Shown here piece by piece: positions 8,529 through 54,554 of a DNA stretch of 64,000 nucleotides. Source of the stretch: a virus (taxonomy: Duplodnaviria > Caudoviricetes); the IMG/VR virus record IMGVR_UViG_3300014656_000001, positions 15,904 through 79,903 of that record; one strand, 5' to 3'. The translations under genes and the position numbers were made by a program. Numbering within the stretch: the first letter of the stretch is position 1; each line of letters opens with the position of its first letter. The notes beneath the pieces were generated by a model. It saw only the letters and a list, made by a program, of their open reading frames with translations, did no database searches and was not told the DNA's origin.

Positions 8529-11500
8529 TATTTGTCCCTCTTACCTTCTTCAACGGCACGAATCAACTTCTGCCCTTCTCTTCGTAACACTTTCTTTACA
8601 TCTCTGGTCGTATTTTCATTCCCACCATTCACTGTGATATTAGGACTGAAAACAAGAGATGCCTTGCTAGAAGTTTTCAATTTTTCATCTGGATAAATTC
8701 TACCATTAACAGAGGGAACAAACAATTCCTTTCTTCCCCGTTCTCCAACCCACAAAGGCTTTCCAGCTTCTGCATCAGCACCCCAAGCACCACCACCCAT
8801 TCCGGGGTTAATGAAATCAAATACATTCCCTCCCGTACCTCCACCCCCTCCAGCAGCTCCCGCAAGACCAAAAGCAGCTCCAAGCAATGGACGAACAATT
8901 CCCATCTGAATGATCTGAGCGTTGATCTCTTGGATAAACTGCATGAAGTTTACCTTCTGTCCAGTTAAGAATTGAGTGAATGTGCTCTCCAATTGAGATA
9001 TGATGTTCTGCCATGCGTTATATGTGTTCATGGCATATTCTTGAGACATGCGAGAGTACTCAGCCATAGCAACTTGAGCACCTTCCCAAGCAGTGCCAAG
9101 AGAAAGAACCTGATCTTCTTGCATCTGTATGACTTTTAATTCAACTTCTTTCTTTGCCATGTCTTGCCCCATAGTGGATAGTCCACTCCCATACTGGTTC
9201 AAATAATCCATGGACTTTTGACGAAGAAACGCCGGGTCATACATCTCATGAAGCTGGTCTACTTTTGACTGTTCTATCTCAGCAAGTCTCTTAGACTCTT
9301 TTTCTAATTTATCCAACTCTTCTTGTGCTTTATCTCTTTCTTCGTCTCTGGCATTATCGTGTATCTCAGCAAGTTTTCTCAAGTGTGTTTTTTCCTTCAA
9401 CTCTTGAACATCGTTAAATTTATCTGTCATACTATCTATCTGAACTTGAGATAGACCTTCTGTTTTAATTTGCTGTTTGTGTTGATATTCAGCGGCCTGT
9501 TTCTGAGCTTCCCATTCAGTCTCTTGTATTCTGATACGTCTCTCAGCTCCATCATAGTGCATTGCATTCAATTCACCCTCAAGAGTGATTGTATTCTGAA
9601 TCATGGACTGCATATATTGTTCATAAGTGGATGTAGCTTTCTTCAATACACCTTCGTCTACACTTTCTTTTTTTTCGGAAGGTTTTTTGAATGGTTTTGT
9701 CCCTTGCTCAACAAGTTTATTAAACTCATCTTGATTTGTGATGTCACCACTGGTTGCTAGGGCTATATCCAACCATTTTTTCTGCTCTTGAAATCTTTTT
9801 TCACTTTTATCATATTTTTCTAAAGTACCCTGAGGAGCTTTCGATCCCCTTGTCATAACAGATGCACCAGACATTGGATCGTATGTCCATTCTCCCTTTT
9901 CCCATTCCTCTTTCTCACGTCTGATTTTTGCAAATTCAGCAAGTGCTATATCATACCTCTCAAAAGCCACTTGAATTTTCTTTTCTTTGTTTATTAACTT
10001 TTCAGCTTCTGCTAAACTTATAGCTCCTTTTGTCCACTTGTCATAGATAGAACTAATTGTGGGAGCTATTCTTATCATTTCCTCAAACAAGCTATTAACT
10101 TTCTCTTTCTCATGCCATAACAAAGTTTCTTTTTGGGCATAATTACCAAGCTCTCCGCTCAATCTATTTATATGTAATTCCAAATTTGATATTCTTATAT
10201 ATGAGGTATTTATCTCTTCATCAAATGCGTTTATAGGAGTCATTACTTTCCTAAAAGCAACACCCAATCCAACTAAAGCAGCTGCCAATGCTATAACAGC
10301 AGAGACCCCACCCCCTGCCAAACCAACCAACCCAAATCCAGCTGCAGCTATTCCACCAGCCGCCCCTAAAATAACCAAAGATGCCGCCGCACCCTCAATA
10401 GCACGAGCCATTATCTCAAACTTCTTATTGTTTTCATTCAGAACATCGGGTATCTTTCCCCACTCTCGAATCAATCCAGTAGCATACTCTGTGATCGTTC
10501 CAAGAGTCTTCCCTACTTTTTCAGCATATCCCGCCGTTATAAAGTTCTCGAATGATGCTGTAACAGCCCTGATAGCTTCTGCAAACTTATCTCCAAAACT
10601 GGCATCAGAAGCAGCTAGTTTGGTCTGGAAGAGAGCTGTTTGTAGTCTGTTCAACTCAGCCTGTAGATTACGAAGAGCAACGGGAAGTGCAGGTCCAAAT
10701 TCTTCTTTTAATACCTTAGCCATTCTTGGTAGCAATACTTCAGCATACACTTCTCCATTTTCAATTGCTTTATCCAGCTCTTGCATAGTCATGTTCATAG
10801 CTTGAGCGGCGAATCGAAATGCACCTGGCATCTGCTCGCCCCACTGCCGTCTCAACTCTTCAGTAGCCACCCGGCCTTTAGACATCATCTGTTGTACAGC
10901 ATAAATGGAACCTGCAACTTGCTCAGCACCCAATCCCATAGCAGTACCAGCCATGGCAATAGCTTCAAAGATATCCCTCACTCCCTGACCTTCCAACTCA
11001 GTTCCCTTCGCCGCTACTTGCAGTTTTGCCAGCTGGTGAGCGGCTGATTGAAGATCAAGTCCCAGATACTTAGAAGTTTCTGTAATATACTCCATCTCAG
11101 CATTAGCACCTGCCATGCTTTCAGTAGCAACCAGCAATGTAGACTTCATTCTCTGGAGGGCTGTAGTGGCATCTACAATGTTCTTCACAAGCAATCCCAC
11201 AGCAACACCCGCAATGACGTTTCTAAAGTTAACAAACGAAGTCATCACAGCACGTGTATTGGTAGACAGTGCATGAAGGGCACTTCCGGCATTTCTGCTA
11301 AACGACACCACAGATGCTTCTGCTTTTTGAGTAGCATTTCTTATGGTGTCCATTTGCTTTTCAACACTCCCACCAGGGTATATTCCAGCAATTGACGCTC
11401 TAATTCCTTTTGTAGACTCCTGTAGATTAGGTCCAGCCATAGCTGAAAGCATTGTCATTGATCTTTTCATATCAGGACTTATAAAACCTGATGGAAAAAG

Positions 11501-24715: not shown

Positions 24716-24874
24716 ATGAGCAAGGAAACTAATGGCATAACCAGTAAACAAGCAAACTCGATAAAATGGATACTCGCCTCTATTGCCTGTGCACTCTTTA
24801 GTATTGTGTGCTTTATACTGTCCACTATACTCTTTTCAATCGCTCAGGGATTACGAGAAGCCGGGAGCATGTGA
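24716..24874 (+). CDS. Small membrane protein
   Basis: SD GGAG and a single hydrophobic helix, WILASIACALFSIVCFILSTILFSIA. Confidence 0.6.
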   Translation: MSKETNGITSKQANSIKWILASIACALFSIVCFILSTILFSIAQGLREAGSM

Positions 24875-24893
24875 ATCTATATTGGAGAAAAAA

Positions 24894-25310
24894 ATGAATA
24901 AAAAAGACTTATCACCACTTGGCACAAATAGTAAAACTAACAGAGGTTTTGGATTGATCGAATTTCTTGATGAATATGGAAAAAAATGCAGTCTGCAAAT
25001 CAGTTCACGCGCTGTGTGTGAAAATGATGATGGTACAGTTGATGACCCTCTTGGTTGGATATGGCTTGGAATTGATGATCCAGAACCAAAAATCATGAAA
25101 ACAAAAGCACAAAAAATTGGTATGGCATTACCTCCTGGAGAAGTCAGTGGATGGATGCCGTATCCAATACCCGATGATGTATTGATACACACAAGAATGC
25201 ACCTCAATGAAACACAAGTGCGGGGTTTGATAGAGAGGTTACAAATATGGCTCGAAACTGGAACATTTACAGAAGAAACAGGAGAAACGAATGAAAAAGT
25301 TACAAGTTGA
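24894..25310 (+). CDS. Conserved phage hypothetical protein
   Basis: SD GGAG. The TNRGF..EF.D.YG..CSLQ.SS.A...IWLG pattern is familiar from phage hypothetical proteins. Confidence 0.65.
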   Translation: MNKKDLSPLGTNSKTNRGFGLIEFLDEYGKKCSLQISSRAVCENDDGTVDDPLGWIWLGIDDPEPKIMKTKAQKIGMALPPGEVSGWMPYPIPDDVLIHTRMHLNETQVRGLIERLQIWLETGTFTEETGETNEKVTS

Positions 25311-25542
25311 ATACCAAAACTCACCGGGAAATTTTCCTAAAACACCCATCTACACCAATACGCAATGTGAAAAATGTGGCGATCTTAATCGTATACCTGG
25401 GTTGGAATACATCGGCCCTGTATATAACACGTTCGATAAAACCAAAATCAATGAACCTGAGGTAATGAAAGTAACATGCAGGCGATGTGGTTATATTGCC
25501 TATATGTCTCCCATTCAACCACGGGAGGAAACGAATGAATAA
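25291..25542 (+). CDS. Small zinc-ribbon protein
   Basis: CEKCG...CRRCG Cys pairs, with an SD and overlaps with its neighbours. Confidence 0.6.
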   Translation: MKKLQVEYQNSPGNFPKTPIYTNTQCEKCGDLNRIPGLEYIGPVYNTFDKTKINEPEVMKVTCRRCGYIAYMSPIQPREETNE

Positions 25543-25795
25543 CAACGTGCAATATGTCCCCATCGTCTTTCGCAAGGGGTTTTGGTTATCATGCGGGAAT
25601 TACACGTCTGATATCAACCAAGCCATCGAATACGCTCAGAATTACGCCAAGAAAGAAAACGCAATAACTGGAGTCAGATACAAACGGGGAAACGTTGTTG
25701 TGGACAAAAGAGTGGATGAACAGGGTTTTCTCCACACTCACACACCCTCAGACATGCCAATTAAAGCCCCATACAGCCCCGCTACAGGCATTTAA
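25535..25795 (+). CDS. Hypothetical protein
   Basis: SD GGGAGG, overlapping the upstream gene end. Confidence 0.55.
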   Translation: MNNNVQYVPIVFRKGFWLSCGNYTSDINQAIEYAQNYAKKENAITGVRYKRGNVVVDKRVDEQGFLHTHTPSDMPIKAPYSPATGI

Positions 25796-25831
25796 GGGAG
25801 CAACACACACATAAGCACTGGAGAATAAAAG

Positions 25832-26164
25832 ATGAAACCTGACTTTGACGTTACTCTCTCTTTGAAAAGTCCCATAAACAGCATTGCTGAGCTCTGGAAA
25901 AAGTTTGACAGGGAGATGCTGACACTCATTCAATTGGAAGTCAGTGATTCTGTGTTTCGAACCATCCAAAACGATATACGAATAATGATACAAGATTTTG
26001 GCCTCAATCTCAGTACATATTCAGTGAGACGTATTGTTATGGAGGTGTTTGGTGTTTTAATCAAACGCATAGTCCCTCCCCACAAAGACCTCCATGACAA
26101 AACATTCACAGCGCATTATAAAGCAGGTATACACCACTACGAGGTACAAGGAAAAATTGTATAA
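25832..26164 (+). CDS. Hypothetical protein
   Basis: SD GGAG, 110 aa. Confidence 0.55.
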   Translation: MKPDFDVTLSLKSPINSIAELWKKFDREMLTLIQLEVSDSVFRTIQNDIRIMIQDFGLNLSTYSVRRIVMEVFGVLIKRIVPPHKDLHDKTFTAHYKAGIHHYEVQGKIV

Positions 26165-26207
26165 TCAAAAGAAAATTAGCCTAAAACATCATTCCCATTG
26201 CAATGCA

Positions 26208-26237
26208 GCCCTCTACACCTCCAGAGGGCATTTTTTT
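26208..26237 (+). terminator. Rho-independent terminator
   Basis: GCCCTCT-loop-AGAGGGC followed by T7. Confidence 0.75.
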
Positions 26238-26445
26238 ATCTAAAAATTATACCATTATTGCTTACCTCGATCGATTCCCCGTACAGATGCTTATATAGTG
26301 AGCAAAACTATTTACCTGCCTGGATCGATGCCCAGTGCCCAAACTTTGAAAATAATTGGGTGTGGCTGCCCCCTACTACACAAGACGTTTTCGGGTTTTT
26401 CATTCTCTATCAAATCTATAGACTGTGTAGACTAATAAACGGTTA

Positions 26446-27063
26446 CTCTACTTAGTCTATAGAGTAAGTAGGGCGGTTGTGCGTGTGTATGGGTGTTTGG
26501 GTATGGGTGACTGTGGCTGGCGTTTCAACGTTTCATGAACATCTATTCATTCCATCTATCTATCCATATCCAAGTAGATTGAAATGGACATCTATTCACT
26601 AGAGAGAGTATGTACCCATAGAACGTTCTGTATCATGCATCTACTTGGATATGGATATCTATATGCTTTGTTGTCTGGTATCCATCCCAGTCTACTATCC
26701 AAAGTATAGCTAGAACGCTTTCTAATACTCTATGTGACAACTTTATTGAGCTGTCAGTCATTTCTACTCTTAATCGGCTTTGAATCGCTTATATGTGACG
26801 CATGGTAAACCTCTCTACTTAGTCTATAGAGTAAGTAGAGAGTGAGAAGTAATTGCACAATATGGGTAAACTTTGCTCACTCTCTAGTGAATAAGTAGAG
26901 TATGCTTTATATTCTTTATATTTATAGACTTATGGAAGCAGGTAGTATGGGTGTAGTATAATAGCGGGCAAATGTTGCGCAAGTTTACATAATGCTTAGT
27001 ACATGGGTAGGGATTTATACACTAGATATTGTGTATTTGTCTATGCTTTATATTCTTTATATT
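26446..27063. repeat. Non-coding cluster of palindromes, inverted repeats and direct repeats
   Basis: CTCTACTTAGTCTATAGAGTAAGTAG at 26446 and 26811 (32-bp near-perfect palindrome). Perfect 19-bp inverted repeat at 26561-26579/26639-26657. 22-bp direct repeat TATGCTTTATATTCTTTATATT at 26901 and 27042. Confidence 0.9.
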
Positions 27064-27069
27064 GGCATA

Positions 27070-27560
27070 GTGATTGCTTACAGTATGGGCGTAAGTCAAA
27101 TCTGACTTACAGTTCTTTGATAACTCTCCAAACCACTAGTATCAAGCAATCCAGACGCTAGTCTTGAGATTAACTATCTCACATAGCAGAATATCAATAC
27201 GCTATGGGATGATTGAGCGCAAAGCTCAATCTCTCTCTTTATGCTCTCCAGCAAGAGCCGGCTAAATGCCCCATATTGAGAGATTCGTGATTGACTTGAG
27301 AAAGTGACCACTATTCCCATTTACGCTAAAAAACACCAAATGTTTAACAGTGTGAATCTCTCTCAGAGATTAATCATTGGAAATGGGAATATGAAGCGAT
27401 TCCATTCACTCCAGAGATTAATGAAAATCTCGATATACTGGAATCCAATAGACTATATGCGTAAGAACTATAGTCTATGATATTTGACAATCTAACTTCT
27501 ATTTATCGAACGATTCGAAGAATCTATGAGATTCACTATTCGTGCGATAGTTGTCACAGC
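27070..27560 (+). ncRNA. Candidate large structured RNA (hairpin-dense non-coding tract)
   Basis: No ORF of 60 aa or more. About ten short hairpins (e.g. GTAAGTCA/TGACTTAC, GATTGAGC/GCTCAATC, TGAGAT/ATCTCA, ATAGACTAT/ATAGTCTAT) plus a long-range GATTGCTT/AAGCAATC pairing. The strand is assumed. Confidence 0.35.
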
Positions 27561-27803
27561 TGGACTTGACAATAAGATACCCAATAGATAAATAGACTTC
27601 CCTGTATATGTAGTAGCATAACTGGCTAGCAAGCTACCCTACTACAAATTATAATGAATAGCACATTTGAATATTCTCTTCTCTTCTCTTTCTCTAGCAA
27701 AGAGAGAGAAGATATTGCATTATTGTAGTATCTTCTCTCTAATTGCCATTCCAAGCGATAGTTTGGAATGAGTAAAATTAGAGAAAAGAGAGAGAGTAAA
27801 AAA

Positions 27804-28085
27804 ATGAACGATAAGAGAAAGAAATTAGATTCGTACGAACTATACAGAATAGCAAGCGATATGCTTTTGAGCTATTCTGAAAGTGATTCGATTGAAGCTC
27901 TTGCAAGAGTGAAACAAGATACCACTTTGGCAATCACAATGGCCCGTCAGTCATTTCTTGCACACTATTCCAATCGCGCTAGCAAACGTTCGTTAAATAC
28001 TATTGCTAATATAGTATTTGACGTTCACTTGTTTGATTCGATTCCCAATAGTGAAGCATTGTTTTCTACTCCATGTATTATGTAA
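27804..28085 (+). CDS. Pre-early/early hypothetical protein
   Basis: Leader GAGAAAAGAGAGAGAG at 27781, ATG at 27804. Confidence 0.65.
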   Translation: MNDKRKKLDSYELYRIASDMLLSYSESDSIEALARVKQDTTLAITMARQSFLAHYSNRASKRSLNTIANIVFDVHLFDSIPNSEALFSTPCIM

Positions 28086-28169
28086 TATCAAAAAGACTAT
28101 ACAAAATTACTTGTATAGTCCATTGATACTATATAGTATCTAAAACCAAAAGAGAAAAGAGAGAGAATC

Positions 28170-28547
28170 ATGAAAACAAAGCAAGATGGTAGAAGTGGAC
28201 AGTATATTCGTGATGATAATGGCAAAGTGGTAAAAGGCGCGCTTACTTATCGTAAGGGTACCCAAGCCGATTTTATCAGTGAAATGCTGATATTGGGAAA
28301 TACGATTGAGAATATCACTAATGAGCTGATTAAATATTTCGGCTTCAAAGCTGCCGATTACAAAAAGTATTATCGGCGCGTATATGGACATATAAAGCAC
28401 ATCGAAGCGAAAAACATGAACATGGAAACACCCATGTTCAAAATTCAAAAAAACGTAAAAACGAGAGTTATCAAAATTACACCAGTGAAGAAATACGTTC
28501 GTGAATACGTCAAGAATGAAATGCCAAATTGTGTAATTGCATTCTAG
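28170..28547 (+). CDS. Pre-early/early hypothetical basic protein
   Basis: Preceded by the hairpin and conserved leader. Confidence 0.7.
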   Translation: MKTKQDGRSGQYIRDDNGKVVKGALTYRKGTQADFISEMLILGNTIENITNELIKYFGFKAADYKKYYRRVYGHIKHIEAKNMNMETPMFKIQKNVKTRVIKITPVKKYVREYVKNEMPNCVIAF

Positions 28548-28641
28548 TTTGGCATACTAACGATACTACACAATAAATAACTATTGTGTAGTATATTAGT
28601 ATTAAAGAAGTAAAAACTAAACAAGAGAAAAGAGAGAGACT

Positions 28642-28956
28642 ATGCTAATTTATGCACTAACAAAAAAAGAATCATTAGACTTGGCTACTGAATTAATGTG
28701 CTCTGACTTAACGATTGAAAATCCCTATGCTATGGAATGGTTTGAACATCATTTTCTGTTGGTGGAAAGCAATGAAAATTACATGTTCATACCACGTACA
28801 AGTGAAGTAGCCGAAATAGTACAATCTACTATAGATGAATACTATAGCGATGTGTTGGACAATGTCACATTCAATACAGAATGTGATCATATAGAGATAT
28901 TCCACTATCTCTATACCAATCTCAAAAAAGCTGAATTGACTATTCCAATTAATTAA
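28642..28956 (+). CDS. Pre-early/early hypothetical acidic protein
   Basis: Preceded by the hairpin and conserved leader. Asp/Glu-rich. Confidence 0.7.
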   Translation: MLIYALTKKESLDLATELMCSDLTIENPYAMEWFEHHFLLVESNENYMFIPRTSEVAEIVQSTIDEYYSDVLDNVTFNTECDHIEIFHYLYTNLKKAELTIPIN

Positions 28957-29040
28957 ATTGTAACACTAGTGAGAGCTCTTGCTATCGATTCAAGAGCTCT
29001 AATTAGTCGTACAATACTATAGAGAAAAGAGATAGAGAAT

Positions 29041-29277
29041 ATGAGAGAAAAAATATACGTAGTATCAAATAATCACGATTCAAAGCGATTTATTCAAAAA
29101 GCAAGTAATGGAATAATCGCCATTCAGAAAGCATTTGGAAACTCACATTACCATGATAGCTATCAATGCAATCCAGCAAAAAAAGCTCAATACGCAAAGT
29201 ATATCCAAGTAGATAATTCTACTCTGCAATCAAAGCAAAGTGGAATAGTCTATCACTCTGAATTACAAGTGTATTAA
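29041..29277 (+). CDS. Pre-early/early hypothetical protein
   Basis: Preceded by the hairpin and the leader AGAGAAAAGAGATAGAG. Confidence 0.65.
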   Translation: MREKIYVVSNNHDSKRFIQKASNGIIAIQKAFGNSHYHDSYQCNPAKKAQYAKYIQVDNSTLQSKQSGIVYHSELQVY

Positions 29278-29346
29278 TTGCATTATTGTAGCTCTATACT
29301 TTACTATTTCTATCAATTAAGTGAAGTATAGAGCTATTCGTTTATT

Positions 29347-29407
29347 CTACTTAATCTATAGATTAAATAGACTTCTATACTCTATTTAGTCTATAGATTA
29401 AATAGAG
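29347..29407. repeat. Two further copies of the TCTATAGA-centred palindrome
   Basis: CTACTTAATCTATAGATTAAATAG (29347-29370) and CTCTATTTAGTCTATAGATTAAATAGAG (29380-29407). Confidence 0.85.
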
Positions 29408-29547
29408 TATTCTGTACTACAGAGATAAGAGGGGAGATAAACTAAATGTAGTATGATTCCCTATAAGAATCCCTATAAAATTGAAATCTCAAAGCTCTGT
29501 AAAAAGAGAAAACGGATTACAAAACGGATTGAAAGAGAGAACGGATT

Positions 29548-29622
29548 ATGGAACACATTATCACAGTTTTCTTAACCATATTCATCATTGTATGGTTAAG
29601 AAACGAACACAAAACGGATTAA
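29548..29622 (+). CDS. Putative 24-aa membrane microprotein
   Basis: MEHIITVFLTIFIIVWLRNEHKTD, with a purine-rich leader. Confidence 0.4.
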   Translation: MEHIITVFLTIFIIVWLRNEHKTD

Positions 29623-29714
29623 TAGATTCAAACAAGAACTGATAAACAAAACGGATTATCAGTTCTATTGAGTTTATTACTCAACAACAAAACAGAGAAA
29701 AGAGGAGAGAGACA

Positions 29715-30011
29715 ATGAAAAAAGTAGTACTAAACTATGAGATTGTAAATCACGGAATTGACAACGAACAATACTTTTCAGGATGCGGAACATCATTCAC
29801 GGAGTTTGATCGTGTCGTTACTGGAATGGGACAGACGGAGCAGGAAGCATTCGATGACGCTATGGAATGCTTGTACGAATCGGAAGACGGACTGGAAGTA
29901 TGCAATAGACTTGAAAGAGAAAAAGGAACACTGAGAACAGAACACGGATGCGACATAGAAGGATTACACTGCTATGTCTCCATACGGTACAATTTAATGC
30001 AATTATCTTGA
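29715..30011 (+). CDS. Early hypothetical acidic protein
   Basis: Preceded by the hairpin and leader AGAGAAAAGAGGAGAG. Confidence 0.7.
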   Translation: MKKVVLNYEIVNHGIDNEQYFSGCGTSFTEFDRVVTGMGQTEQEAFDDAMECLYESEDGLEVCNRLEREKGTLRTEHGCDIEGLHCYVSIRYNLMQLS

Positions 30012-30093
30012 TATTGTCACATAAGACTGATAACGGATAACGTTGTCGGTCTTGGTGAAGTATCAAACTAACAGAGAAAAGAGGAGAGATATT

Positions 30094-30390
30094 ATGTTAC
30101 ATGTACGTACAAATAATCAGAAAAGACAAATTGAAGACGGTGAGAACGGAACCAATGGATTCACGTATAAAAAGTATTTCTACAATTTCGCTGACTTCAT
30201 TCTCACAGAAACAGGTTCTGAATTGCATAAAGCAGGTTGGTATGGATTACAACCGGCTACGATGGGATCAGGTGTCTGTGTGAAATTCCCGGATGATGAA
30301 CCACAAGGATCTTGTGAGAACATCATTGTAGGTTGGTTCTGGTACACTTCTGAAGTGATGGATGAAATGGAAAAAGAAGGTGTGCTATGA
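30094..30390 (+). CDS. Early hypothetical protein
   Basis: Preceded by the hairpin and conserved leader. ATG at 30094. Confidence 0.7.
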   Translation: MLHVRTNNQKRQIEDGENGTNGFTYKKYFYNFADFILTETGSELHKAGWYGLQPATMGSGVCVKFPDDEPQGSCENIIVGWFWYTSEVMDEMEKEGVL

Positions 30391-30620
30391 ACGATAAGTT
30401 TATGGTTTGTTTATGGTTTGTTTGTATCGATTATCATAGCGGACAGTGGTCAAGAGGATACGAATTGCAATGCAGGTTGATGAAAAGGATCACACGCATT
30501 GCAAGACTGAGAAAGGTTCCCTTTTTCGTATTCACTGAAGCTACTTTCTTCAAGGGAAACGGATACAACAATGATCCACTGTACCAGGAACTGGCAAAAA
30601 GGTTTGGAGATGAATTGTAA
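30387..30620 (+). CDS. Early hypothetical protein
   Basis: ATGA overlap with the upstream gene. Contains IDYHSGQWSRGY. Confidence 0.6.
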   Translation: MNDKFMVCLWFVCIDYHSGQWSRGYELQCRLMKRITRIARLRKVPFFVFTEATFFKGNGYNNDPLYQELAKRFGDEL

Positions 30621-30711
30621 ATTCTAATTTCAAGAAAGAACTGATAACTGATAAAAGGTTGTCAGTTCTGTTGAGAGTAGAATACAAAACAGAGAAAAGA
30701 GGAGAGATATT

Positions 30712-31050
30712 ATGAAAGTACACCAGGATAAATATACAAAATATTTAGATTTATTTGAACTGGACAAAAACGGAACAGAATTATCTGAGATGAAGGTGGG
30801 ACAGAGATATCTAGGATACAGCGGAGATATCTATGTTATCACAGAACAGACTCCAGGAATCACAGAATGTCATGTATACGGTAACAGAAAAACACTGTAT
30901 ACGTTCTCAAGCAATTCTAAAGGATATCCATTAGTTCCCAAAACGGATATCGTGAAAGAGATTGCCGAAAAGAACGGATTCACTGTATTGGATATCCAAT
31001 GCGGTGAAGTTGAACCTAAAGACATACGAGGATTGCCCACTGTTGAATGA
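30712..31050 (+). CDS. Early hypothetical protein
   Basis: Preceded by the hairpin and conserved leader. Confidence 0.7.
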   Translation: MKVHQDKYTKYLDLFELDKNGTELSEMKVGQRYLGYSGDIYVITEQTPGITECHVYGNRKTLYTFSSNSKGYPLVPKTDIVKEIAEKNGFTVLDIQCGEVEPKDIRGLPTVE

Positions 31051-31137
31051 TGAATAAGACTGGTAACGGATCAATCGTTATCAGTCTAGTTGGTTATTCA
31101 ACTAACCTACAACAAGAGAAAAGAGGAGAGAAATATC

Positions 31138-32010
31138 ATGGCTAATTTGCAACAGAAAGCAATCATGGTGAAAAAGACGGTTACCACTTGGACTTCCAGT
31201 ATCACGGATAAGTCTGAGTCACAGAAGGTCGCCAGTGACAATGACACTACAACAAATAGCGTTACAGTCACAAAGAGGTTGATTGCCCGTTCTCACATGG
31301 ACGGAATCAACAAGACGGTTTCAAAAATCAACACGTTATTCAAAGCAAAAACAAAACCGTTTCTTGACGGTGGCTGGAATGTCTGTTCGATTGAGGATTG
31401 GCCTGAGCTCAGAAAGGAACTCACTGAGTTGAAAGATGAGTTCGAAAAAGAGGTTCAGGACTTCTGCAATCGCTATGACACTGTGCGTAACGCTGAAGTA
31501 TCCAAGCTGGGAAAGCTTGGACATGAAAGCGAATATCCAACGAAGGAACAGATTTCACATCGGTTCCAATGCGGATTCGCTGTGCTTCCACTTCCCAGTG
31601 TGAATGAGGATTTCAGAGTAGGAAATTCCGACGCTGAAAATGCCGAGATTCGCAAAGAGGTTGAAGCGACTGTGAAATCAGCAATTGGCAACACTGTTAC
31701 TTCAGGATTGAAAGAAATGACGGAAGCCCTGAAGCGATTGCAAGAGAAGTTCAAGACGGTTCCAAAAAAGGTTCACGAATCGATTATTGGGAACGTTGAG
31801 GAACTCTGTGAAGTACTTCCGAAGTTGAATATCGCGGGGGATCCTGCACTGGACAAGATGATGCAGGAGATCAAAGAGAAAGTATGCAAGTACGGTACTT
31901 TCGGATTGAAGGGTGAGACGGAGCGCGCTACGAAAGCGCGTGAAGAGGTTGTGACGGCCAGTGAGGAATTGGTAGCACAGATCGAGGAACGCATGGCTGG
32001 ATATTATTAG
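31138..32010 (+). CDS. DUF3150-like coiled-coil protein
   Basis: TWTSSITDK, KRLIA, TKPFLDGGW and YPTKEQISHRF pattern. First gene of the AAA/vWA trio. Confidence 0.6.
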   Translation: MANLQQKAIMVKKTVTTWTSSITDKSESQKVASDNDTTTNSVTVTKRLIARSHMDGINKTVSKINTLFKAKTKPFLDGGWNVCSIEDWPELRKELTELKDEFEKEVQDFCNRYDTVRNAEVSKLGKLGHESEYPTKEQISHRFQCGFAVLPLPSVNEDFRVGNSDAENAEIRKEVEATVKSAIGNTVTSGLKEMTEALKRLQEKFKTVPKKVHESIIGNVEELCEVLPKLNIAGDPALDKMMQEIKEKVCKYGTFGLKGETERATKAREEVVTASEELVAQIEERMAGYY

Positions 32011-32091
32011 TCAACAGAAGACTGATAACGGATTATTGTTATCGGTCTTCGTGGATTAATAAACCCAATAAAGAGAAAAGAGGAGAGAACA

Positions 32092-33111
32092 ATGAAACAA
32101 TCGGAACTGAAACAAGCGATTCAGGATGCCCGCGTACTTATGGAATCGGTATTCGTATGGGGCGCACCAGGTATTGGAAAGTCAGCTATTATTTATCAGC
32201 TGTCTTGTATGCTGGACATACTTTTCAAGGATGTTCGGGTGTTGTTACTTGACCCGACTGACTTGAAAGGATTTCCCGATCCATTTAACGGTGATACTGT
32301 GAAGTGGAAAGTACCTGACTTTTGGCCGAAAGACGGTGAGGGGATTATTCTTCTCGATGAATTGAATCTCGGTTCAAAGATGGTACAGGATGCTTGTTAC
32401 CAGCTGATACACGATAGAAAAGTAGGAGATTATGAAGTTCCTGCCGGCTGGACTATCGTAGCTGCTGGAAATCGAGAGACTGACGGATGCGGTGTTAAGC
32501 GTCAATCAGCTGCTCTCGCAAGCAGGTTCATCCATGTGACACTGGATCATGAAACTGAGGAATTCAAAGCAGAATTTCTCAAGTACGCACGGGAGAACGG
32601 ATTCCATCCCATTGTTCTCGGTTACTTATCTGTCAACAAAGCTGCCATATTCAAATATGACAAAACAGCGTTGACGTTTGCTAACCCAAGAACGTGGGAG
32701 AAGGTATCGAAGATGTGCAAACTGTTTGAGAACGGTGATCGCACTGATTCATACAAGCGGCAGATGTTTCAAGGTTGCGTGGGGGAAGGTGAAGGAAACA
32801 ACTTCTTTGATTTTTATAAGAACTGTTTAACTCTTCCCAATCCCAAACAAATACTGAAAGATCCTGTTGGCACTTGGCCGGTGGACAGCTCGTTCAGCAC
32901 TTCACCCGAAAAAATGGGACAGCTCTACATGGTATGCACCGCGTTAGCCAGACTGGTTGACAAGAGCACTATTGACAATATGACGGTGTTCTTGAATACA
33001 CTTCCCATGCGGGAGTTCGGAACGTTCACTATGGAGGATGCTATTGCACAGCATCCTGAACTGATGAAAACGGATGCTTACATCCAGTGGCAGAGTAAGA
33101 TAGCTGCTTGA
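32092..33111 (+). CDS. MoxR-like AAA+ ATPase
   Basis: Walker A WGAPGIGKS, Walker B ILLDELN, IVAAGNR, ALASRF and NPRTWE motifs. Confidence 0.9.
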   Translation: MKQSELKQAIQDARVLMESVFVWGAPGIGKSAIIYQLSCMLDILFKDVRVLLLDPTDLKGFPDPFNGDTVKWKVPDFWPKDGEGIILLDELNLGSKMVQDACYQLIHDRKVGDYEVPAGWTIVAAGNRETDGCGVKRQSAALASRFIHVTLDHETEEFKAEFLKYARENGFHPIVLGYLSVNKAAIFKYDKTALTFANPRTWEKVSKMCKLFENGDRTDSYKRQMFQGCVGEGEGNNFFDFYKNCLTLPNPKQILKDPVGTWPVDSSFSTSPEKMGQLYMVCTALARLVDKSTIDNMTVFLNTLPMREFGTFTMEDAIAQHPELMKTDAYIQWQSKIAA

Positions 33112-33195
33112 TTCAAAGAGACTGATAACTGATAATAAGAGGTTATCAGTCTACTTGAGTTTAGCAACACAAAATGAGAAAAGAGGAGAGAACAA

Positions 33196-34362
33196 ATGAA
33201 AGCAATAGATAAAATATTCAAAGCTCGTGAACGTTTGATTCTCAGTACCGTATTCTTCGGTGCTCTGTGTATTCGATTGATCCCTAAAGAGGATACTTCT
33301 TGCGATACGGCTTGGACGGATGGTATTCATATTGGATACAATCCCAAGTTTATTGAGACGTTGTCGATGGCTCATTTAGTCTTCGTTCTTGCCCATGAAG
33401 TCCTCCACTGTGTCTTCAATCATCACACAAGAAGGAACGGACGTGACGCTAAGAAGTGGAACGTAGCTTGCGATTATGCTATCAATATCATTCTTACCGA
33501 TTACGGATATACGTTATTAGAAGGTGCTCTGTATGATGAAAAATATCGAGGTATGGATGTTTATGAAATCTACAGGGACTTATACGGTAACGATATGAAT
33601 GATGATGATGGAGATCAGCAATCAAAAGGATCAAGTGATCCTGGTGAATGCGGTGAAGTGAGAGACTTCCCAGAAGAAGACGGTGAAGAATCTAAAAGTG
33701 AAAACGAGCAGAATTGGAAACAAGCTTCCATCAAAGCGCAGGAAATGGCTGAGAGGAAGGATGAGAAGGTTAATTCCAGAATTAGTGACGCTATCTACGG
33801 TTACAAAAATCCTAGAACTGACTGGCGTTCAGTACTGAATGAGTTTTTGACAGAACAGATAAACGATGATTACACATTCACAACTCCTAATCGCCGTTAC
33901 TTGGCTCATAAATTGTATATGCCAGGTATGGACGGGGAGCAGATGAAGGAAATGGTGTTCATCGTGGACACTTCGGGTTCTGTCAAGACTGATATGCTGA
34001 ACCAGTTCTGGACAGAGATCAAAACGGTACTGGAACTGTTTGATGAAGTGAAAGTAACCATTCTTCATGTTGACAACGTGTTGAGCGGGGTTGAGGTATT
34101 GGAACCCCACGATGAGAAACCTGAAACTCTAGTTCCAAAAAGCACGTATGGAGGAACTGATTTTCGACCTGGTTTCGAATGGATTGAAGAAAATGAAATT
34201 GATCCAGGATGCGTTATTTACTACACAGACGGTATGTGCCGTGATTACCCGCAAGAACCTGATTACCCCGTACTTTGGGCGAAGTTCGCTACAGAGTGGG
34301 ACGGTATGTTAAAATTCAATCCACCCTTCGGGCAGGTAGTGCCTGTTGATTACGTGGACTGA
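33196..34362 (+). CDS. DUF2201-type putative metallopeptidase plus vWA-domain protein
   Basis: TAWTDG, HEVLH zinc motif, WNVACDYAIN, MIDAS-like VDTSGS, GGTDFRP and YYTDG. Confidence 0.88.
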   Translation: MKAIDKIFKARERLILSTVFFGALCIRLIPKEDTSCDTAWTDGIHIGYNPKFIETLSMAHLVFVLAHEVLHCVFNHHTRRNGRDAKKWNVACDYAINIILTDYGYTLLEGALYDEKYRGMDVYEIYRDLYGNDMNDDDGDQQSKGSSDPGECGEVRDFPEEDGEESKSENEQNWKQASIKAQEMAERKDEKVNSRISDAIYGYKNPRTDWRSVLNEFLTEQINDDYTFTTPNRRYLAHKLYMPGMDGEQMKEMVFIVDTSGSVKTDMLNQFWTEIKTVLELFDEVKVTILHVDNVLSGVEVLEPHDEKPETLVPKSTYGGTDFRPGFEWIEENEIDPGCVIYYTDGMCRDYPQEPDYPVLWAKFATEWDGMLKFNPPFGQVVPVDYVD

Positions 34363-34466
34363 TTGCAGTATCTCTCTCAACTCTCTTTATGCTGTCAGTG
34401 AGCAATGGGGTTCACTGGCAGTAATGGATAGTTGAAACACAAAATGAGAAAAGAGGAGAGATTATT

Positions 34467-34745
34467 ATGAAAAGACTAAAAACCCAATATGTGGAAATCC
34501 TGCAGAGAGCCATTGATTCTCAATGGGGGGATTTCAAAAAGTTCACACAGAATAAAAAGATTGATTTCATCTTCTGTGATGAAAATGAAGAAACAAAGTT
34601 CACGTTCGGAAAAGGTGCCTGGATTAATTTGTTCTTCAGTGTACAAGGACATCGTGTAGAACAGGATTGGAAGGTGACTCCATTTATGGATGGAGATGAG
34701 ATTAAGGTTGAGTTTTACAGAAAATCGGAAACCGAACCTAATTGA
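34467..34745 (+). CDS. Early hypothetical protein
   Basis: Preceded by the hairpin and conserved leader. Confidence 0.65.
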   Translation: MKRLKTQYVEILQRAIDSQWGDFKKFTQNKKIDFIFCDENEETKFTFGKGAWINLFFSVQGHRVEQDWKVTPFMDGDEIKVEFYRKSETEPN

Positions 34746-34825
34746 TATCTCATAGAGAACAGGTAACGGATTATTGTTATCTGTTCTAATGAAGTATCAA
34801 ATCTGAGAAAAGAGGAGAGATTATT

Positions 34826-35554
34826 ATGAAAAGAAAAGAAGCAATAGAGCTACTAAAAACAAATGTTTCAGCATGGAATCAATACAGAATCGACAATCCA
34901 TCTTGGATTCCTAATTTGCGAGGGGCTAATTTGCAAGATGCTGATTTGCGAGGGGCTGATTTGCGAGAGGCTGATTTGCAATGGGCTAATTTGCAAGATG
35001 CTGATTTGCGAGGGGCTGATTTGCGAGGTGATAATTTGCAATGGACTAATTTGCAAGATGCTGATTTGCGAGGGGCTGATTTGCGAGGTGCTAATTTGCG
35101 AGAGGCTAATTTGCAATGGGCTAATTTGCAAGGGGCTAATTTGCAAGATGCTGATTTTCGAGGTGCTAATTTGCGAGGTGATAATTTGCAATGGACTAAT
35201 TTGCAATGGACTAATTTGCAAGATGCTGATTTGCGAGGGGCTAATTTGCAAGGGGCTAATTTGCAAAAGGCTAATTTGCAAAAGGCTAATTTGCAAAGGG
35301 CTGATTTGCAAAGGGCTTGTTATGGGAAAGGTGTTCCCATTACAAAAGAACCTCTACAAATACACGGATTAATATATTTTGTTTTGGTTATGGACTCTCA
35401 CATGAAAATAGGATGTGAATTACATAGCTTTGAAGAATGGCAGAATTTTTCTGATAGAGAAATTCTTACAATGGATAATTCTTCCGCCCTAAAGTTTTGG
35501 AACCAGTATAAGCCCATGTTAATGGGATTATGTAAAACAAGAACCGAGGAATGA
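34826..35554 (+). CDS. Pentapeptide-repeat protein 1
   Basis: About 27 tandem A(D/N)Lxx repeats (15-bp DNA period) and C-terminal MKIGCELHSFEEW. Confidence 0.92.
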   Translation: MKRKEAIELLKTNVSAWNQYRIDNPSWIPNLRGANLQDADLRGADLREADLQWANLQDADLRGADLRGDNLQWTNLQDADLRGADLRGANLREANLQWANLQGANLQDADFRGANLRGDNLQWTNLQWTNLQDADLRGANLQGANLQKANLQKANLQRADLQRACYGKGVPITKEPLQIHGLIYFVLVMDSHMKIGCELHSFEEWQNFSDREILTMDNSSALKFWNQYKPMLMGLCKTRTEE

Positions 35555-35578
35555 ATCTGAGAAAAGAGGAGAGATAAA

Positions 35579-35848
35579 ATGGCTAAAAAAATGCACGTGA
35601 AGACATACTTGCGAAACTGGGCCGGTTTGGACGGTAGAACCGACAGAACACCCATTGAAGTGGTAGACGGATATAAGTTACCCATTCTCGAAGGGGAGCC
35701 GGGATATTGGACGACCCCAAGCGGTAAAACAGTCGTATATCATCCCAATGCGTATGGATGGCCCACATGGTATCACCATTCAACCAAAAAGGTTGTTGTT
35801 GGCCGGGGATTGCTGGAAGCTTATGGGATTCCAACATCCGATTTGTAA
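35579..35848 (+). CDS. Early hypothetical protein
   Basis: Conserved leader at 35560. Confidence 0.65.
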   Translation: MAKKMHVKTYLRNWAGLDGRTDRTPIEVVDGYKLPILEGEPGYWTTPSGKTVVYHPNAYGWPTWYHHSTKKVVVGRGLLEAYGIPTSDL

Positions 35849-35926
35849 ATCTAAACCAAGACTGATAACGGATTAGTGCTATCAGTCTTATTAGACGTAC
35901 AAACCAAAAGAAAGAGAGAAGAGATT

Positions 35927-36172
35927 ATGAAACTGTCAGAACAGATGACTAAACAGATCGCTGTGTGTCAATCGGCAATCGAACGGGTAAAAGCCCTGGA
36001 GAATGCTATGGATGCCGCTGAAAAGGCCGCTGAAGCCCTCACCCCTGGACTGAAAGAAACAAAACGGGGAATCACTCCCATGCTCCAGAACGGACAGGGT
36101 GGGAGGTTTGGTGATGATGATGCCAGAACTGATTTACCAATGACAAAACCGAACGGAGATGTGGCACAATGA
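35927..36172 (+). CDS. Early hypothetical protein
   Basis: Preceded by the hairpin and a purine-rich leader. Confidence 0.6.
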   Translation: MKLSEQMTKQIAVCQSAIERVKALENAMDAAEKAAEALTPGLKETKRGITPMLQNGQGGRFGDDDARTDLPMTKPNGDVAQ

Positions 36173-36507
36173 AACAAATATACAGCATTGCAATGAGCAA
36201 TGGGTACGGGATTCAAATGTTTCATTTATGTGATGAAATCCGCACCCTCAAACGAAGACTGACACAACTTGTGAAAGCTGGGTTATGTCCACGTAACGCT
36301 CACTTAAAAGTGAGTCACAACGGAAAGTCTGAACAGTTCCCCAAAGATGAAACTGAAAAAATTGTGGACAAGGCAATAAAGGACTTGTGCTCAGATATGA
36401 ACAAGCCTGTGGATATTTGGGGAATACATGAAGACGGTCAGTATCATTGCGAAGAGGGAATAACAATCTCAAGAGTAAATGTACTTACGATGGATGATTT
36501 GGATTGA
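36169..36507 (+). CDS. Early hypothetical protein
   Basis: ATGA overlap with the upstream gene. Confidence 0.6.
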   Translation: MKQIYSIAMSNGYGIQMFHLCDEIRTLKRRLTQLVKAGLCPRNAHLKVSHNGKSEQFPKDETEKIVDKAIKDLCSDMNKPVDIWGIHEDGQYHCEEGITISRVNVLTMDDLD

Positions 36508-36583
36508 TGTTCTCAGATAGCCGGGGATTGAGTTCCCCGGTCTTTTGAGAGTACCAAACTAAAAAGAGAGAGGAGAATTGATT

Positions 36584-36850
36584 ATGGATTACAAAGAAGC
36601 TGCTGAAAAAACATCATTCACACTAGACCGCATTCATTACTGCTTTATGTGGAACAGTAAATTTTGGGATATGGACTACAGCATGGCAGATAGACCTTTC
36701 ACCCTGGATGAAGTTCGGGAAATCAAAAGTGTCTGGGAACTGATGGGAGATAATTCAAATTTCTACGGGGCATTCTGTGAAGTTGCCAGAGCAAAGGGAT
36801 ATTTTGAGAGTGATTTGTATCTCAAAAAAGGAGAAAAACATGAATCTTAG
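36584..36850 (+). CDS. Early hypothetical protein
   Basis: Preceded by a hairpin at about 36512-36550 and the leader AAGAGAGAGGAG. Confidence 0.6.
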   Translation: MDYKEAAEKTSFTLDRIHYCFMWNSKFWDMDYSMADRPFTLDEVREIKSVWELMGDNSNFYGAFCEVARAKGYFESDLYLKKGEKHES

Positions 36851-36917
36851 AAAAAATTACACAGAAGAAGATTTACAGCGGTGTACAGAAGAAGCCAGGA
36901 CGGGAGAACAATTATGA
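36840..36917 (+). CDS. Putative 25-aa microprotein
   Basis: [33 protein letters not shown], with its stop overlapping the next ATG. Confidence 0.4.
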
Positions 36918-37663
36918 ATAAATTACGAACATTGGAATTATTAATGGAAATTGCGGCTTGGAATGCTTATCGCAAAGAAAATCCATATTGGACTCCGAAT
37001 CTGAGCGGTGTGAATCTGAGTGATGCGAATCTGAGTGATGCAAATCTGAGTGATGCAAATCTGAGTGATGCAAATCTGAGTGATGCGAATCTGATCTATG
37101 CAAATCTGAGTGATGCAAATCTGAGTGATGCAAATCTGAGTGATGCAAATCTGATCTATGCAAAACTAAGCAATGCAAAACTAAGCAATGCGAATCTGAG
37201 CAATGCGAATCTGAGCAGTGCGAATCTGAGCAATGCGTATCTGATCTATGCAAAACTAAGCAATGCAAAACTAAGCAATGCAAATCTAAACCGTACGAAT
37301 CTGAGCAGTGCGTTTGGGTTATTATCCTCATCTGATTGGTTGAAAGAGAACTTTGATACTTACCACGGCAGAGGATATATAGTGTTCAAGGAGGTAGATT
37401 TGTATAAATCTACTCCCCCAAAATGGGAATACAAAGGCGGGAATACTCTCGCCGAAACGGTTAATCCTAACCGAACGGATGACTGCGGGTGTGGCATCAA
37501 TTTTGCCACTTTGACGTGGATTAAAAAGAAAAATGTAAGACCTGATTTAGTAATCTGGAAGTGCTTGCTCACCTGGGAGGCACTAGCTGATACTGTTGTT
37601 CCATATAATACGAATGGTAAAGCCCGGTGCCAGAGTTTGCAACTGTTGGAGCGAATCCAATGA
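36914..37663 (+). CDS. Pentapeptide-repeat protein 2 with a conserved C-terminal domain
   Basis: Tandem ANLS(D/N) repeats and C-terminal [15 protein letters not shown]...GKARC. Confidence 0.9.
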
Positions 37664-37729
37664 TTGGAATTGCAATGTGTGGTGCTGGTAAGAATATTTC
37701 ATACTGCAATGAAATGTAATTATTTTGGG

Positions 37730-38662: not shown

Positions 38663-39163
38663 ATGCGAACAAAACACACACACCTACCTGTCAAAAACCA
38701 TTTCAACTTAATCAGACGAGTATGCTGGAGGTTTTGCAAAAAGACCCGTTTGGACTATGAAGATGCCGTCCAAGGTTCTATTTTGTTCGTGCTGGAAAGA
38801 GCACATCTTTACTCCCCTAATAAGGGAAAAGAAACAACCTTCATACACACAGTCACAAAAAACTATCTGATTAACTTAATCAGAAGAGAAGTAAGAAGAA
38901 ATCATGGGTGTCTTGTAGAAGATATGGACATACGAACCACAGGCCGTGAAGAAATAGAAAACCTATTACTTCACGAATCTCTATCAGAAGATGCTATAAT
39001 GCTTCTGAATTACATAGAGAATAAATTAGTACCTTCCAGAAGAACCCGGCTAGCTCCCGATCTTCGAAGAGAGGTTAAAAACTATGGCACTCATCAAATG
39101 GGTAAACGTAGAATGATAAAAGCATACAGAGAGTTAAGAAAATGGTATGCCGAACTTCAATAG
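38663..39163 (+). CDS. Phage sigma-factor-like protein (sigma70 region 2)
   Basis: LIRRVCWRF...LDYEDAVQ...LYSPNKGKETTFIHTVTKNYLINLIRRE resembles region 2 of alternative sigma factors. Confidence 0.7.
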   Translation: MRTKHTHLPVKNHFNLIRRVCWRFCKKTRLDYEDAVQGSILFVLERAHLYSPNKGKETTFIHTVTKNYLINLIRREVRRNHGCLVEDMDIRTTGREEIENLLLHESLSEDAIMLLNYIENKLVPSRRTRLAPDLRREVKNYGTHQMGKRRMIKAYRELRKWYAELQ

Positions 39164-44184: not shown

Positions 44185-44214
44185 TTGACGAACCTTTTAA
44201 CACGTGTGTATAAT
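44185..44214 (+). promoter_or_regulatory. Sigma70-like promoter followed by a tandem 15-bp repeat (possible operator)
   Basis: TTGACG-N18-TATAAT, then TTATTAGCAGATTGT twice at 44216-44246. Confidence 0.65.
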
Positions 44215-44506
44215 GTTATTAGCAGATTGTTTATTAGCAGATTGTTACTTTATCCAAAGAAAGAGGGTGATTATCATGCGCCGGGGATAAAACCCCCACT
44301 CCAAAAAAACTCAACCCTGTTGAAATTTAGTGTGTTTTTAGCAACAACGGTCAGCTCTGGAGAGTGCCTGACCGTTGTACTAAAGGCACATTTCAAAGCC
44401 GCACTCTCTTTTCTCTCTCTGCTGTGCCTGGTGTGTGCCATAGGGGAATACTCATCACGTTATTGGTGGGTATTCCCCACAACTAAATTTTACAGAGGTA
44501 TTAAAA

Positions 44507-50519: not shown

Positions 50520-50533
50520 CCAGGAGGAACAAA

Positions 50534-51654: not shown

Positions 51655-51736
51655 TTGTTTATCTATTCATATTAGCAATCCCTTGTATGTTATTAATTCA
51701 GTTTGTTGTATATCTTATATTGAAGAGGTTACTTAA

Positions 51737-54541: not shown

Positions 54542-54554
54542 CAGGAGAATTAAA

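Follow-up and report, generated by a model that had tools for sequence, protein, structure and literature searches.

An AGG/CCT-purged module and three levels of [A/C]GGA avoidance in a tailed-phage genome

Introduction

Why should a tailed phage remove one short guanine-containing word from a 3-kb module and leave it in place in the genes next door? The question is raised by a 64,000-nucleotide stretch of DNA (the window) from the virus record IMGVR_UViG_3300014656_000001 (Duplodnaviria; Caudoviricetes), where positions 26319-29702, hereafter the island, hold almost no AGG[A/C/T] on either strand. The window covers bases 15904-79903 of this 79,903-bp single-contig record, and positions are those of the window unless the genome is named. 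An initial annotation, made from the letters alone, had noticed that AGG and CCT are avoided here.

The motifs that a phage genome avoids preserve, like fossils, a record of the agents that attack or mark the DNA, and the classical cases are restriction sites of 4-8 bp. The present genome differs from these in two respects. The avoided word is a non-palindromic G-containing motif of 3-4 nt, removed from both strands, in spacers as well as at synonymous sites. In the 3-kb module its removal is complete enough to cost the canonical ribosome-binding site, and the adjacent early block is exempt.

The AGG and CCT deficit of the island

The island is defined by a single feature.

26319-29702, both strands: purged span, with three AGG[A/C/T] or [A/G/T]CCT (26809, 26940, 28235) in 3385 nt

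The genome mean for these words (AGGH/DCCT) is one per 79 nt, and about 43 are expected in this span. The three largest AGGH/DCCT gaps of the genome are consecutive and extend from 26318 to 29703. The initial annotation had placed a stretch free of AGGA and TCCT at about 26155-29700, and this was borne out: the gap runs from 26149 to 29702 (3554 nt) and is the longest in the genome. [A/C]GGA and TCC[G/T] are wholly absent from 26150 to 29512. The early estimate of about 10 AGG plus CCT in 26461-29430 was exact, with 10 counted, seven of which are AGGG. Some 20 plus-strand AGG had been estimated for the next kilobase, and 21 are found in 30001-31000. ACGG is missing from 26440 to 29511, as had been noted, but its frequency to the right needs a different reading: the AGG- and ACGG-rich block is the exception in this genome, not the norm.

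Expectations for the core of the island (26472-29344) were taken from a first-order Markov model built on the island's own dinucleotides. AGG occurs 4 times against 25 expected, and CCT 4 times against 22. Taken by tetranucleotide, AGGH/DCCT is found 3 times against about 42, and AGGG/CCCT 5 times against 6, so the latter is not depleted. GGA, TGG and GGG are at or above expectation. Of the 136 reverse-complement tetranucleotide pairs, all but two (AGGA/TCCT and CGGA/TCCG) are represented, and T or G precedes every GGA/TCC of the core (45/45). A scan of all 3- and 4-mers in all 3-kb windows, scaled to the genome-wide ratio of each word, ranks this as the top local depletion in the genome (P = 1e-6).

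The ratio of observed to expected AGG/CCT is 0.17 in the untranslated half of the island and 0.16 in the coding half. The four island genes contain 3 AGG plus CCT, against 10.9 ± 2.4 when their own synonymous codons are permuted (P = 3e-4), which is the strongest deficit of 32 trinucleotides; the codon usage of the downstream genes predicts 18.5. None of the 16 arginine codons is AGG and none of the 9 proline codons is CCT. Glycine makes up 2.7% of the island proteins versus 7%, and proline is likewise scarce. Flanking gene sets have no AGG/CCT deficit under the same permutation. The purge exceeds what base composition, codon usage and amino-acid sequence account for. Both strands are depleted, which indicates that selection acts on the DNA and not on mRNA alone. 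Selection against a G-containing word had been proposed from the outset, with k-mer statistics corrected for composition and codon usage as the check, and the depletion survives that correction.

A by-product of chance or low GC content, its contrast exaggerated by an AGG-rich neighbour, is very improbable and largely refuted. The island is indeed the AT-richest part of the genome (GC 33-37%), several G-rich words have their longest gaps nearby, the genome-wide AGG/CCT baseline is already low (ratio about 0.7), and the adjacent 8-kb block is unusually AGG-rich. However, composition-corrected, dinucleotide-corrected and codon-permutation tests all reject this explanation, and the undiminished GGA, TGG and GGG and the run of three consecutive AGGH gaps also speak against it. 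Relaxed constraint, which would let a genome-wide purge reach completion in the island, was rejected as a cause since the phage's other intergenic DNA (3.1 kb) is unpurged, with an AGG/CCT ratio of 0.87.

CAG/CTG (halved) and GATC are also depleted in the island, and its k-mer diversity is the lowest in the genome. A separate phenomenon of a private, restricted vocabulary was considered and dropped; the k-mer deficit is mostly the AGG purge itself.

Genome-wide avoidance of [A/C]GGA and the exempt early block

The AGG/CCT island stands as a local depletion, with the word itself refined. The avoided word is AGG[A/C/T] plus [A/C]GGA, AGGG is tolerated, and the avoidance of [A/C]GGA is genome-wide. 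Of all non-palindromic tetranucleotides in the whole genome, AGGA/TCCT and CGGA/TCCG show the strongest depletion. Two gene sets, the replication genes and the late genes, were permuted at synonymous codons. AGGA was found 31 times against 96 expected (replication) and 43 against 103 (late), TCCT 11 against 57 and 29 against 54, CGGA 8 against 51 and 10 against 55, and TCCG 8 against 29 and 6 against 31. The z-scores of these deficits range from -4.4 to -8.4, with -4.8 to -8.4 for [A/C]GGA, and TGGA/TCCA is raised in compensation. All three reading frames and both orientations show the deficit of [A/C]GGA, which indicates selection on DNA rather than on the encoded protein or a single mRNA strand.

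Outside 26.2-37.7 kb the [A/C]GGA ratio is 0.38, a roughly threefold purge that leaves about 300 sites in the genome. In 34 unrelated viral loci the same ratio is 1.09 ± 0.17, with a minimum of 0.78. AGGAG is the one context spared (ratio 0.88), presumably since it serves as ribosome-binding site.

The block to the right of the island behaves differently.

29694-37663, plus strand: neighbouring early block ("zone 3"), with nine AGGAG-leader cassettes; exempt from the [A/C]GGA purge
29505-29660, plus strand: five spaced intergenic copies of AAAACGGATTA, start of the ACGGA-rich block

There is no purge in 29440-37700, where AGGA occurs 50 times against 45 expected and CGGA 37 times against 35. 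The [A/C]GGA level is therefore 0 in the island, about 0.38 in the rest of the genome and about 1.1 in the early block. The exemption of the early block exaggerates the contrast at the right edge of the island; the sharp contrast there is that of the most purged segment of the genome beside its only unpurged one. The early block avoids GATC, CTAG and TTAA like the rest of the genome, and by this measure it is not foreign-looking.

ACGGA is concentrated in the early block, which holds 36 of the 46 genome copies (29505-37475), all on the plus strand (z = +3). TCCGT occurs only 9 times in the whole genome. The five-copy ACGGATTA array at 29505 forms the entrance of the early block and the right limit of the module described below. 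ACGGA also recurs in the loops of hairpins between cassettes, as AGACTGATAAC-GGATTATT-GTTATCAGTCT. ACGGA is the recognition site of TspGWI (PMC2700111). This site covers just one sub-word of the purged motif, and no enzyme was found for [A/C]GGA or AGGH. The single orientation of the ACGGA sites recalls the evasion of Type III restriction. CsrA-type recognition of A(N)GGA was considered and dropped; the phage is without a CsrA homologue, and ATGGA and AGGGA are common in the island.

A reader at [A/C]GGA encoded by the phage, or induced in mid-infection, is unlikely, yet it is the sole reading considered that covers all three levels. A nuclease, a DNA-binding roadblock or a DNA-modifying enzyme would shut off host DNA together with the phage's own early block, the latter being meant for switch-off. 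Middle and late genes would be partly purged for self-protection, and the island fully purged as its cis elements and products must persist. The array at the entrance of the early block and the plus-strand-only enrichment of ACGGA fit such a reader, as do the HNH nucleases and the large DNA-modification cluster that the phage encodes. A reader present in every infection would exert constant selection, which fits a complete purge without palindrome avoidance. Against it, no candidate reader gene was found, the island's extra purge of AGGT, AGGC and GAGG goes unexplained, about 300 sites would still remain, and phage systems are not known to act on DNA in this manner.

Leaders of the early cassettes

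The island is the 5' end of a series of 13 cassettes with a common leader. Its four genes carry the leader AGAGAAAAGAG(A/AT)GAG, and nine genes at 29694-35558 carry GAGAAAAGAGGAGAGA. The island leaders are thus the resident leader minus one G. The nine neighbouring cassettes share an invariant 16-nt leader. The change of leader, with the canonical AGGAG given up, had been pointed out at the start and holds for the 4 island genes against the 9 neighbouring ones.

27780-28085, plus strand: cassette 1, leader AGAGAAAAGAGAGAGAG; orphan protein of 93 aa (27804-28085)
28151-28547, plus strand: cassette 2, GG-less leader; orphan protein of 125 aa (28170-28547), pI 9.8
28624-28956, plus strand: cassette 3, GG-less leader; acidic orphan protein of 104 aa (28642-28956)
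29021-29277, plus strand: cassette 4, leader AGAGAAAAGAGATAGAGA; orphan protein of 78 aa (29041-29277)
29421-29451, plus strand: degenerate leader AGAGATAAGAGGGGAGA, then ATG with TAG immediately behind it; carries the first AGG beyond the island, directly past the third palindrome pair

The last of these may be either a start-stop mini-open reading frame or a relic or dead cassette. Predicted pairing of the leader with the anti-Shine-Dalgarno sequence weakens from -9.1 kcal/mol to between -5.7 and -2.9 kcal/mol in the island, with an internal mismatch, compared with -8.5 to -11.6 kcal/mol for neighbouring and late genes; these values were computed with a generic anti-Shine-Dalgarno sequence, which may not be that of the host. 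No AGGAG-type pairing with the 3' end of 16S rRNA is available to the island leaders 5-12 nt before the start codon. Under a reader that acts on DNA, the AGGAG leader would have been abandoned because it contains AGGA.

Selection at the level of RNA is a decidedly improbable alternative. Words resembling Shine-Dalgarno or anti-Shine-Dalgarno sequences would be avoided for the sake of a separate translation programme, or to escape a RegB-like GGAG nuclease, and the four genes would be translated or kept once the AGGAG-led cassettes have been silenced. Most AGG that survive are AGGG, which is not Shine-Dalgarno-like, and AAGG, AGGA, GGAG, GAGG and AGGT on the plus strand total 3 against about 35 expected. 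The invariant leader of the nine cassettes suggests a specific trans-acting factor, and at about 44404-44418 there are 13 nt perfectly antisense to the island leader. However, CCT is depleted as much as AGG on the same strand and in both halves of the island, CGGA/TCCG is absent without being Shine-Dalgarno-like, and the genome-wide purge is strand-symmetric and independent of frame.

The antisense match is part of CTCTCTTTTCTCTCT, on the plus strand within the gene at 44185-44526, and its partner in the island leader is AGAGAAAAGAGAG. With the AGGAG-type leader, CTCTCTTTTCTCTCT pairs over just 10-11 nt.

RegB of phage T4 is an endoribonuclease that acts on RNA only and cuts GGAG in the Shine-Dalgarno sites of early genes. 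Here too a purine motif of the ribosome-binding site splits the early genes, GGAG being absent from the 4 island leaders and present in the 9 neighbouring ones. Unlike the RegB case, the reverse complement is equally purged; no search was aimed at RegB homologues. Promoter-early stem-loop (PeSL) cassettes of T4-type phages, found in hyperplastic regions, are similar in that a hairpin and a conserved regulatory leader stand before each small orphan early gene, although the leader sequence is unrelated. To our knowledge, PeSLs have not been reported with a motif purge.

Layout of the module

The island lies within a discrete module that opens the early region and extends from a terminator at 26208-26229 to the ACGGATTA array. 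Rightward from the terminator, the palindromes are followed by about 1.35 kb without a credible open reading frame (ORF), then by the four small genes, 400 nt of spacer and an extended series of early-type cassettes.

26208-26229, plus strand: intrinsic terminator (GC stem, then T run), left limit of the module
26405-26471, no strand: palindrome pair 1, degenerate copy 26405-26430 and perfect copy 26446-26471; left purge edge
26473-26812, no strand: untranslated DNA holding a G/T-rich tract and an inverted repeat of 27 nt (26553-26579 / 26639-26665)
26813-26902, no strand: palindrome pair 2, perfect copy 26813-26838 and degenerate copy 26876-26902
26901-26922 and 27042-27063, no strand: two identical 22-nt direct repeats in untranslated DNA
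27260-27780, plus strand: untranslated array of at least 6 stable hairpins (RNA fold z-score -6.95)
29345-29370 and 29380-29405, no strand: palindrome pair 3; right purge edge

The 26-nt near-perfect palindrome CTCTACTTAGTCTATAGAGTAAGTAG makes up the three pairs (26405/26446, 26813/26876 and 29345/29380) and occurs nowhere else in the genome. The outermost palindromes stand within about 30-90 nt of the purge edges. A search for relatives of CTCTACTTAGTCTATAGAGTAAGTAG gave no match, no credible ORF was found in 26230-27780, and Rfam and tRNA scans of the island region returned nothing relevant. A scan for sigma-70 promoters found sites no more numerous than in shuffled sequence.

The 125-aa protein of cassette 2 is a candidate winged-helix DNA-binding protein, judging from its AlphaFold 2 (AF2) model. 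The mean predicted local distance difference test (pLDDT) score is 74, rising to 84-91 over residues 30-120, and the topology is H-H-H-E-E-H. Foldseek matches it to MarR, ArsR, ScpB and RosR (E about 0.1), and VIA-align 2 to forkhead, E2F, PadR and MecI (Z 5-5.5), with middling scores. Its best structural neighbours are almost all winged-helix DNA binders, and it is without sequence relatives. It is a plausible candidate for the binder of the palindromes.

A proposed leading module hidden from a DNA reader

The tentatively favoured explanation, held with less than even confidence, is that the island is a leading early module that needs to be invisible to a DNA reader of a short motif, by analogy with the logic of T5 and T7. 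A reader of a short G-containing motif on DNA would shape the genome, and the island would be the one segment fully invisible to it, carrying cis elements and the first genes needed while the reader is still active. The same word is selected against about threefold at synonymous sites across the rest of the genome, and the purge probably reflects a factor that recognises this motif on the DNA. The early timing of the island, its entry ahead of other DNA and a reader that belongs to the host's defences are presumed rather than observed parts of this explanation.

In T5, a 1662-bp untranslated, repeat-rich region adjoins the pre-early genes, and restriction sites do harm in the first-step-transfer DNA and nowhere else (10.1101/866236). 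The island resembles this DNA in that a large untranslated region of repeats and palindromes adjoins its genes. With regard to missing sites the comparison is divided: AGGH, [A/C]GGA and GATC are gone or nearly so from the segment, and CTAG, GCGC, TGATCA and GGTACC are kept. Differences are that the untranslated block precedes the genes here and follows them in T5, that the avoided word is a 3-4-nt non-palindromic motif and not a 6-bp site, and that the same motif is partly purged across the whole genome. PHROG, PADLOC and Pfam reveal no homologues of A1, A2 or dmp among the four island proteins, and a terminal-repeat position of the island is conjecture for a genome known from a circular assembly alone.

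In T7 and T3, the anti-restriction gene 0.3 (ocr) lies in the leading region and is expressed first. By analogy, the first early genes may be followed here by further early genes, and the leading DNA would have to outlast the phase before counter-defence. Unlike T7 and T3, the island encodes no recognisable acidic DNA mimic, the structure model of its lone acidic protein (28642-28956; pLDDT 50) being too poor to judge, and a sigma-factor-like gene is seen in place of a phage RNA polymerase.

Avoidance of restriction sites and of protospacer adjacent motifs (PAMs) in phage genomes has been described (PMC4687349, PMC4246573). The present depletion is likewise strand-symmetric and found at synonymous sites, in a genome that also avoids about 15 palindromic sites. 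It differs in that the word is non-palindromic, 4 nt long and degenerate at its first base, in its three regional levels (none, about threefold, total), and in that no restriction enzyme or PAM of such specificity was found.

A broader and more doubtful proposal is that a factor reading [A/C]GGA, or the wider set AGG[A/C/T], on DNA that is double- or single-stranded has made three classes of this genome: a fully purged leading module whose Shine-Dalgarno sites were sacrificed as well, a body purged about threefold, and an exempt early block in which ACGGA is concentrated on one strand. The reader could be a host guanine-directed ADP-ribosyltransferase, a glycosylase, a frequent-cutting nuclease or the phage's own enzyme. 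DarT1 was considered and is only a lead, as the one enzyme studied has no consensus motif (PMC11543638). If a DNA reader of very short specificity is at work, the island and the genome map would give a direct handle on its motif, predict which DNA acts first, and provide a readout of the temporal programme of exposure to the reader.

Relatives offer little comparison. A nucleotide search of GenBank phages found none, and the leader 16-mer gave single chance matches only in IMG/VR. Viral and metagenome contigs yielded TerL-based relatives of no more than 44% identity; most are high in GC, and they are unpurged.

Points against a leading module, and restriction palindromes

Several findings weigh against a leading module hidden from a host reader. 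The next 8 kb look early too, yet they are wholly unpurged, which sits poorly with a host reader that acts as the DNA enters. The record ends share a 123-bp overlap, which makes the assembly circular and the end positions arbitrary, and they give no entry order. The four orphan proteins are unlike known anti-defence proteins. They have no PHROG or PADLOC match, and their Pfam matches are sub-threshold and chance-like. The ESM Atlas gave only leads below 0.9, a word search of 5.8 billion proteins returned the query itself alone, and a full phmmer scan gave one spurious match, to a repetitive protein. The island also retains CTAG (ratio 0.9 versus 0.33 elsewhere) and GCGC, both avoided by the rest of the genome, and it contains the genome's sole TGATCA and one of its two GGTACC. 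It is the strongest di- and trinucleotide-signature outlier of the genome (z about 4). More than one force, or a separate history, may lie behind its composition.

The retained sites belong to a genome that selectively avoids many restriction palindromes, for instance in 38600-64000 and 1-24500. The sites of AvaI, AvaII, AvaIII, AhaIII, BclI, NdeI, EcoRI, BglII, XbaI, SphI and BamHI are at 0-0.15 of expectation. AvaI sites (CYCGRG) occur 3 times against 27 expected, AvaII sites (GGWCC) 8 against 98, AvaIII sites (ATGCAT) 5 against 34, TTTAAA 0 against 51, TGATCA 1 against 45, CATATG 0 against 28 and GAATTC 2 against 35. AGATCT, TCTAGA, GCATGC and CCCGGG are absent genome-wide, and the sites of EcoRV, ScaI, ClaI and PvuII are not avoided. 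GATC is nearly gone from the island (1 against 12.6 expected). The island does not share the genome's avoidance of CTAG, GCGC, CGCG and 6-bp palindromes, and the idea that it is proofed against restriction in general is weakened by the CTAG, GCGC, TGATCA and GGTACC sites that it keeps.

A separate history of the module, through recent acquisition or very fast turnover, with the AGG/CCT deficit inherited from elsewhere, is rather improbable. The signature, the missing palindrome avoidance, the lowest GC and k-mer diversity of the genome, and the orphan status of all four proteins are what it has in its favour. However, the two absent tetranucleotides are exactly those that the resident genome purges, the island leaders differ from the resident leader by a single G, and the AGG purge itself explains most of the lost k-mer diversity. 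Any donor, too, would need active selection to reach a trinucleotide ratio of 0.16.

The 7-deazaguanine pathway

The initial annotation had suggested that the purged word could be the target of the phage's own 7-deazaguanine modification, with the island kept unmodified for host RNA polymerase; host initiation or packaging factors could equally be the proteins that must read it. The evidence weakens this suggestion, which is now improbable. Genes of the pathway are present at 49.3-57.2 kb, for QueD, FolE and two QueE-like radical SAM (S-adenosylmethionine) proteins; a methyltransferase, an epimerase and a protein with a weak glycosyltransferase-like match are encoded there too. Repeats that may bind proteins are densely packed in the untranslated half of the island, and the strong palindrome avoidance of the genome implies that any modification is sparse and not global. 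Mapped DpdA motifs are GA and GGC (PMC7544227) or GA alone (PMC10484667). These are unlike the purged words, and GA is abundant in the island, leaders included (GA/TC at 1.1-1.15 of expectation). The putative DpdA at 57227-58285 has no Pfam or NCBIfam match. Furthermore, there is no clear reason to purge the target of a protective mark from most of the phage's own genome, and the early genes, which are also read from incoming DNA, are rich in the motif.

The similarity to DpdA systems such as those of CAjan (GA and GGC) and iggy (GA) is that of a short G-centred motif in a phage that encodes part of the pathway; the known motifs do not match, and the transglycosylase is putative here. We know of no description of a phage avoiding its own DpdA motif. 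Among the confirmed products of the cluster at 49327-58285 are a SAM methyltransferase and an HNH nuclease whose HNH domain is of the Cas9 type; no QueC was seen in it.

Neighbouring genes and other avoided words

Structural genes run leftward from 24510 and include TerL, the portal, the major capsid protein and tape-measure proteins. Rightward plus-strand genes begin at 24783. The first of them form a four-gene operon (24783-26164) upstream of the island, which the terminator at 26208-26229 closes.

Directly past the early cassettes, 38663-39163 encodes a protein of 166 aa in which Pfam recognises sigma-70 region 2 (E = 1.3e-9). It is a likely phage sigma factor for the middle or late switch, and its position just beyond the cassettes fits an early region. 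Replication genes and the 7-deazaguanine pathway genes lie to its right.

In its part at 31138-37663 the early block encodes two pentapeptide-repeat proteins (34826-35554 and 36881-37663) and a triad that consists of a DUF3150 protein, a MoxR-type AAA ATPase and a DUF2201 metallopeptidase/vWA protein. The pentapeptide-repeat fold is known for DNA mimicry. Together with the avoidance of AvaI, AvaII and AvaIII sites and a GC content of 40%, these two proteins give a lead to the identity of the host, a hint and no more that it may be a filamentous cyanobacterium.

The second-strongest dinucleotide-signature outlier lies at genome bases of about 10000-11500 (window -5900 to -4400), with a local deficit of AAAA/TTTT. 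A second non-palindromic avoidance in the genome is that of GCAGCA/TGCTGC, which occurs once (window 12915) against 22 expected, and AGCTGC/GCAGCT is threefold over-represented.

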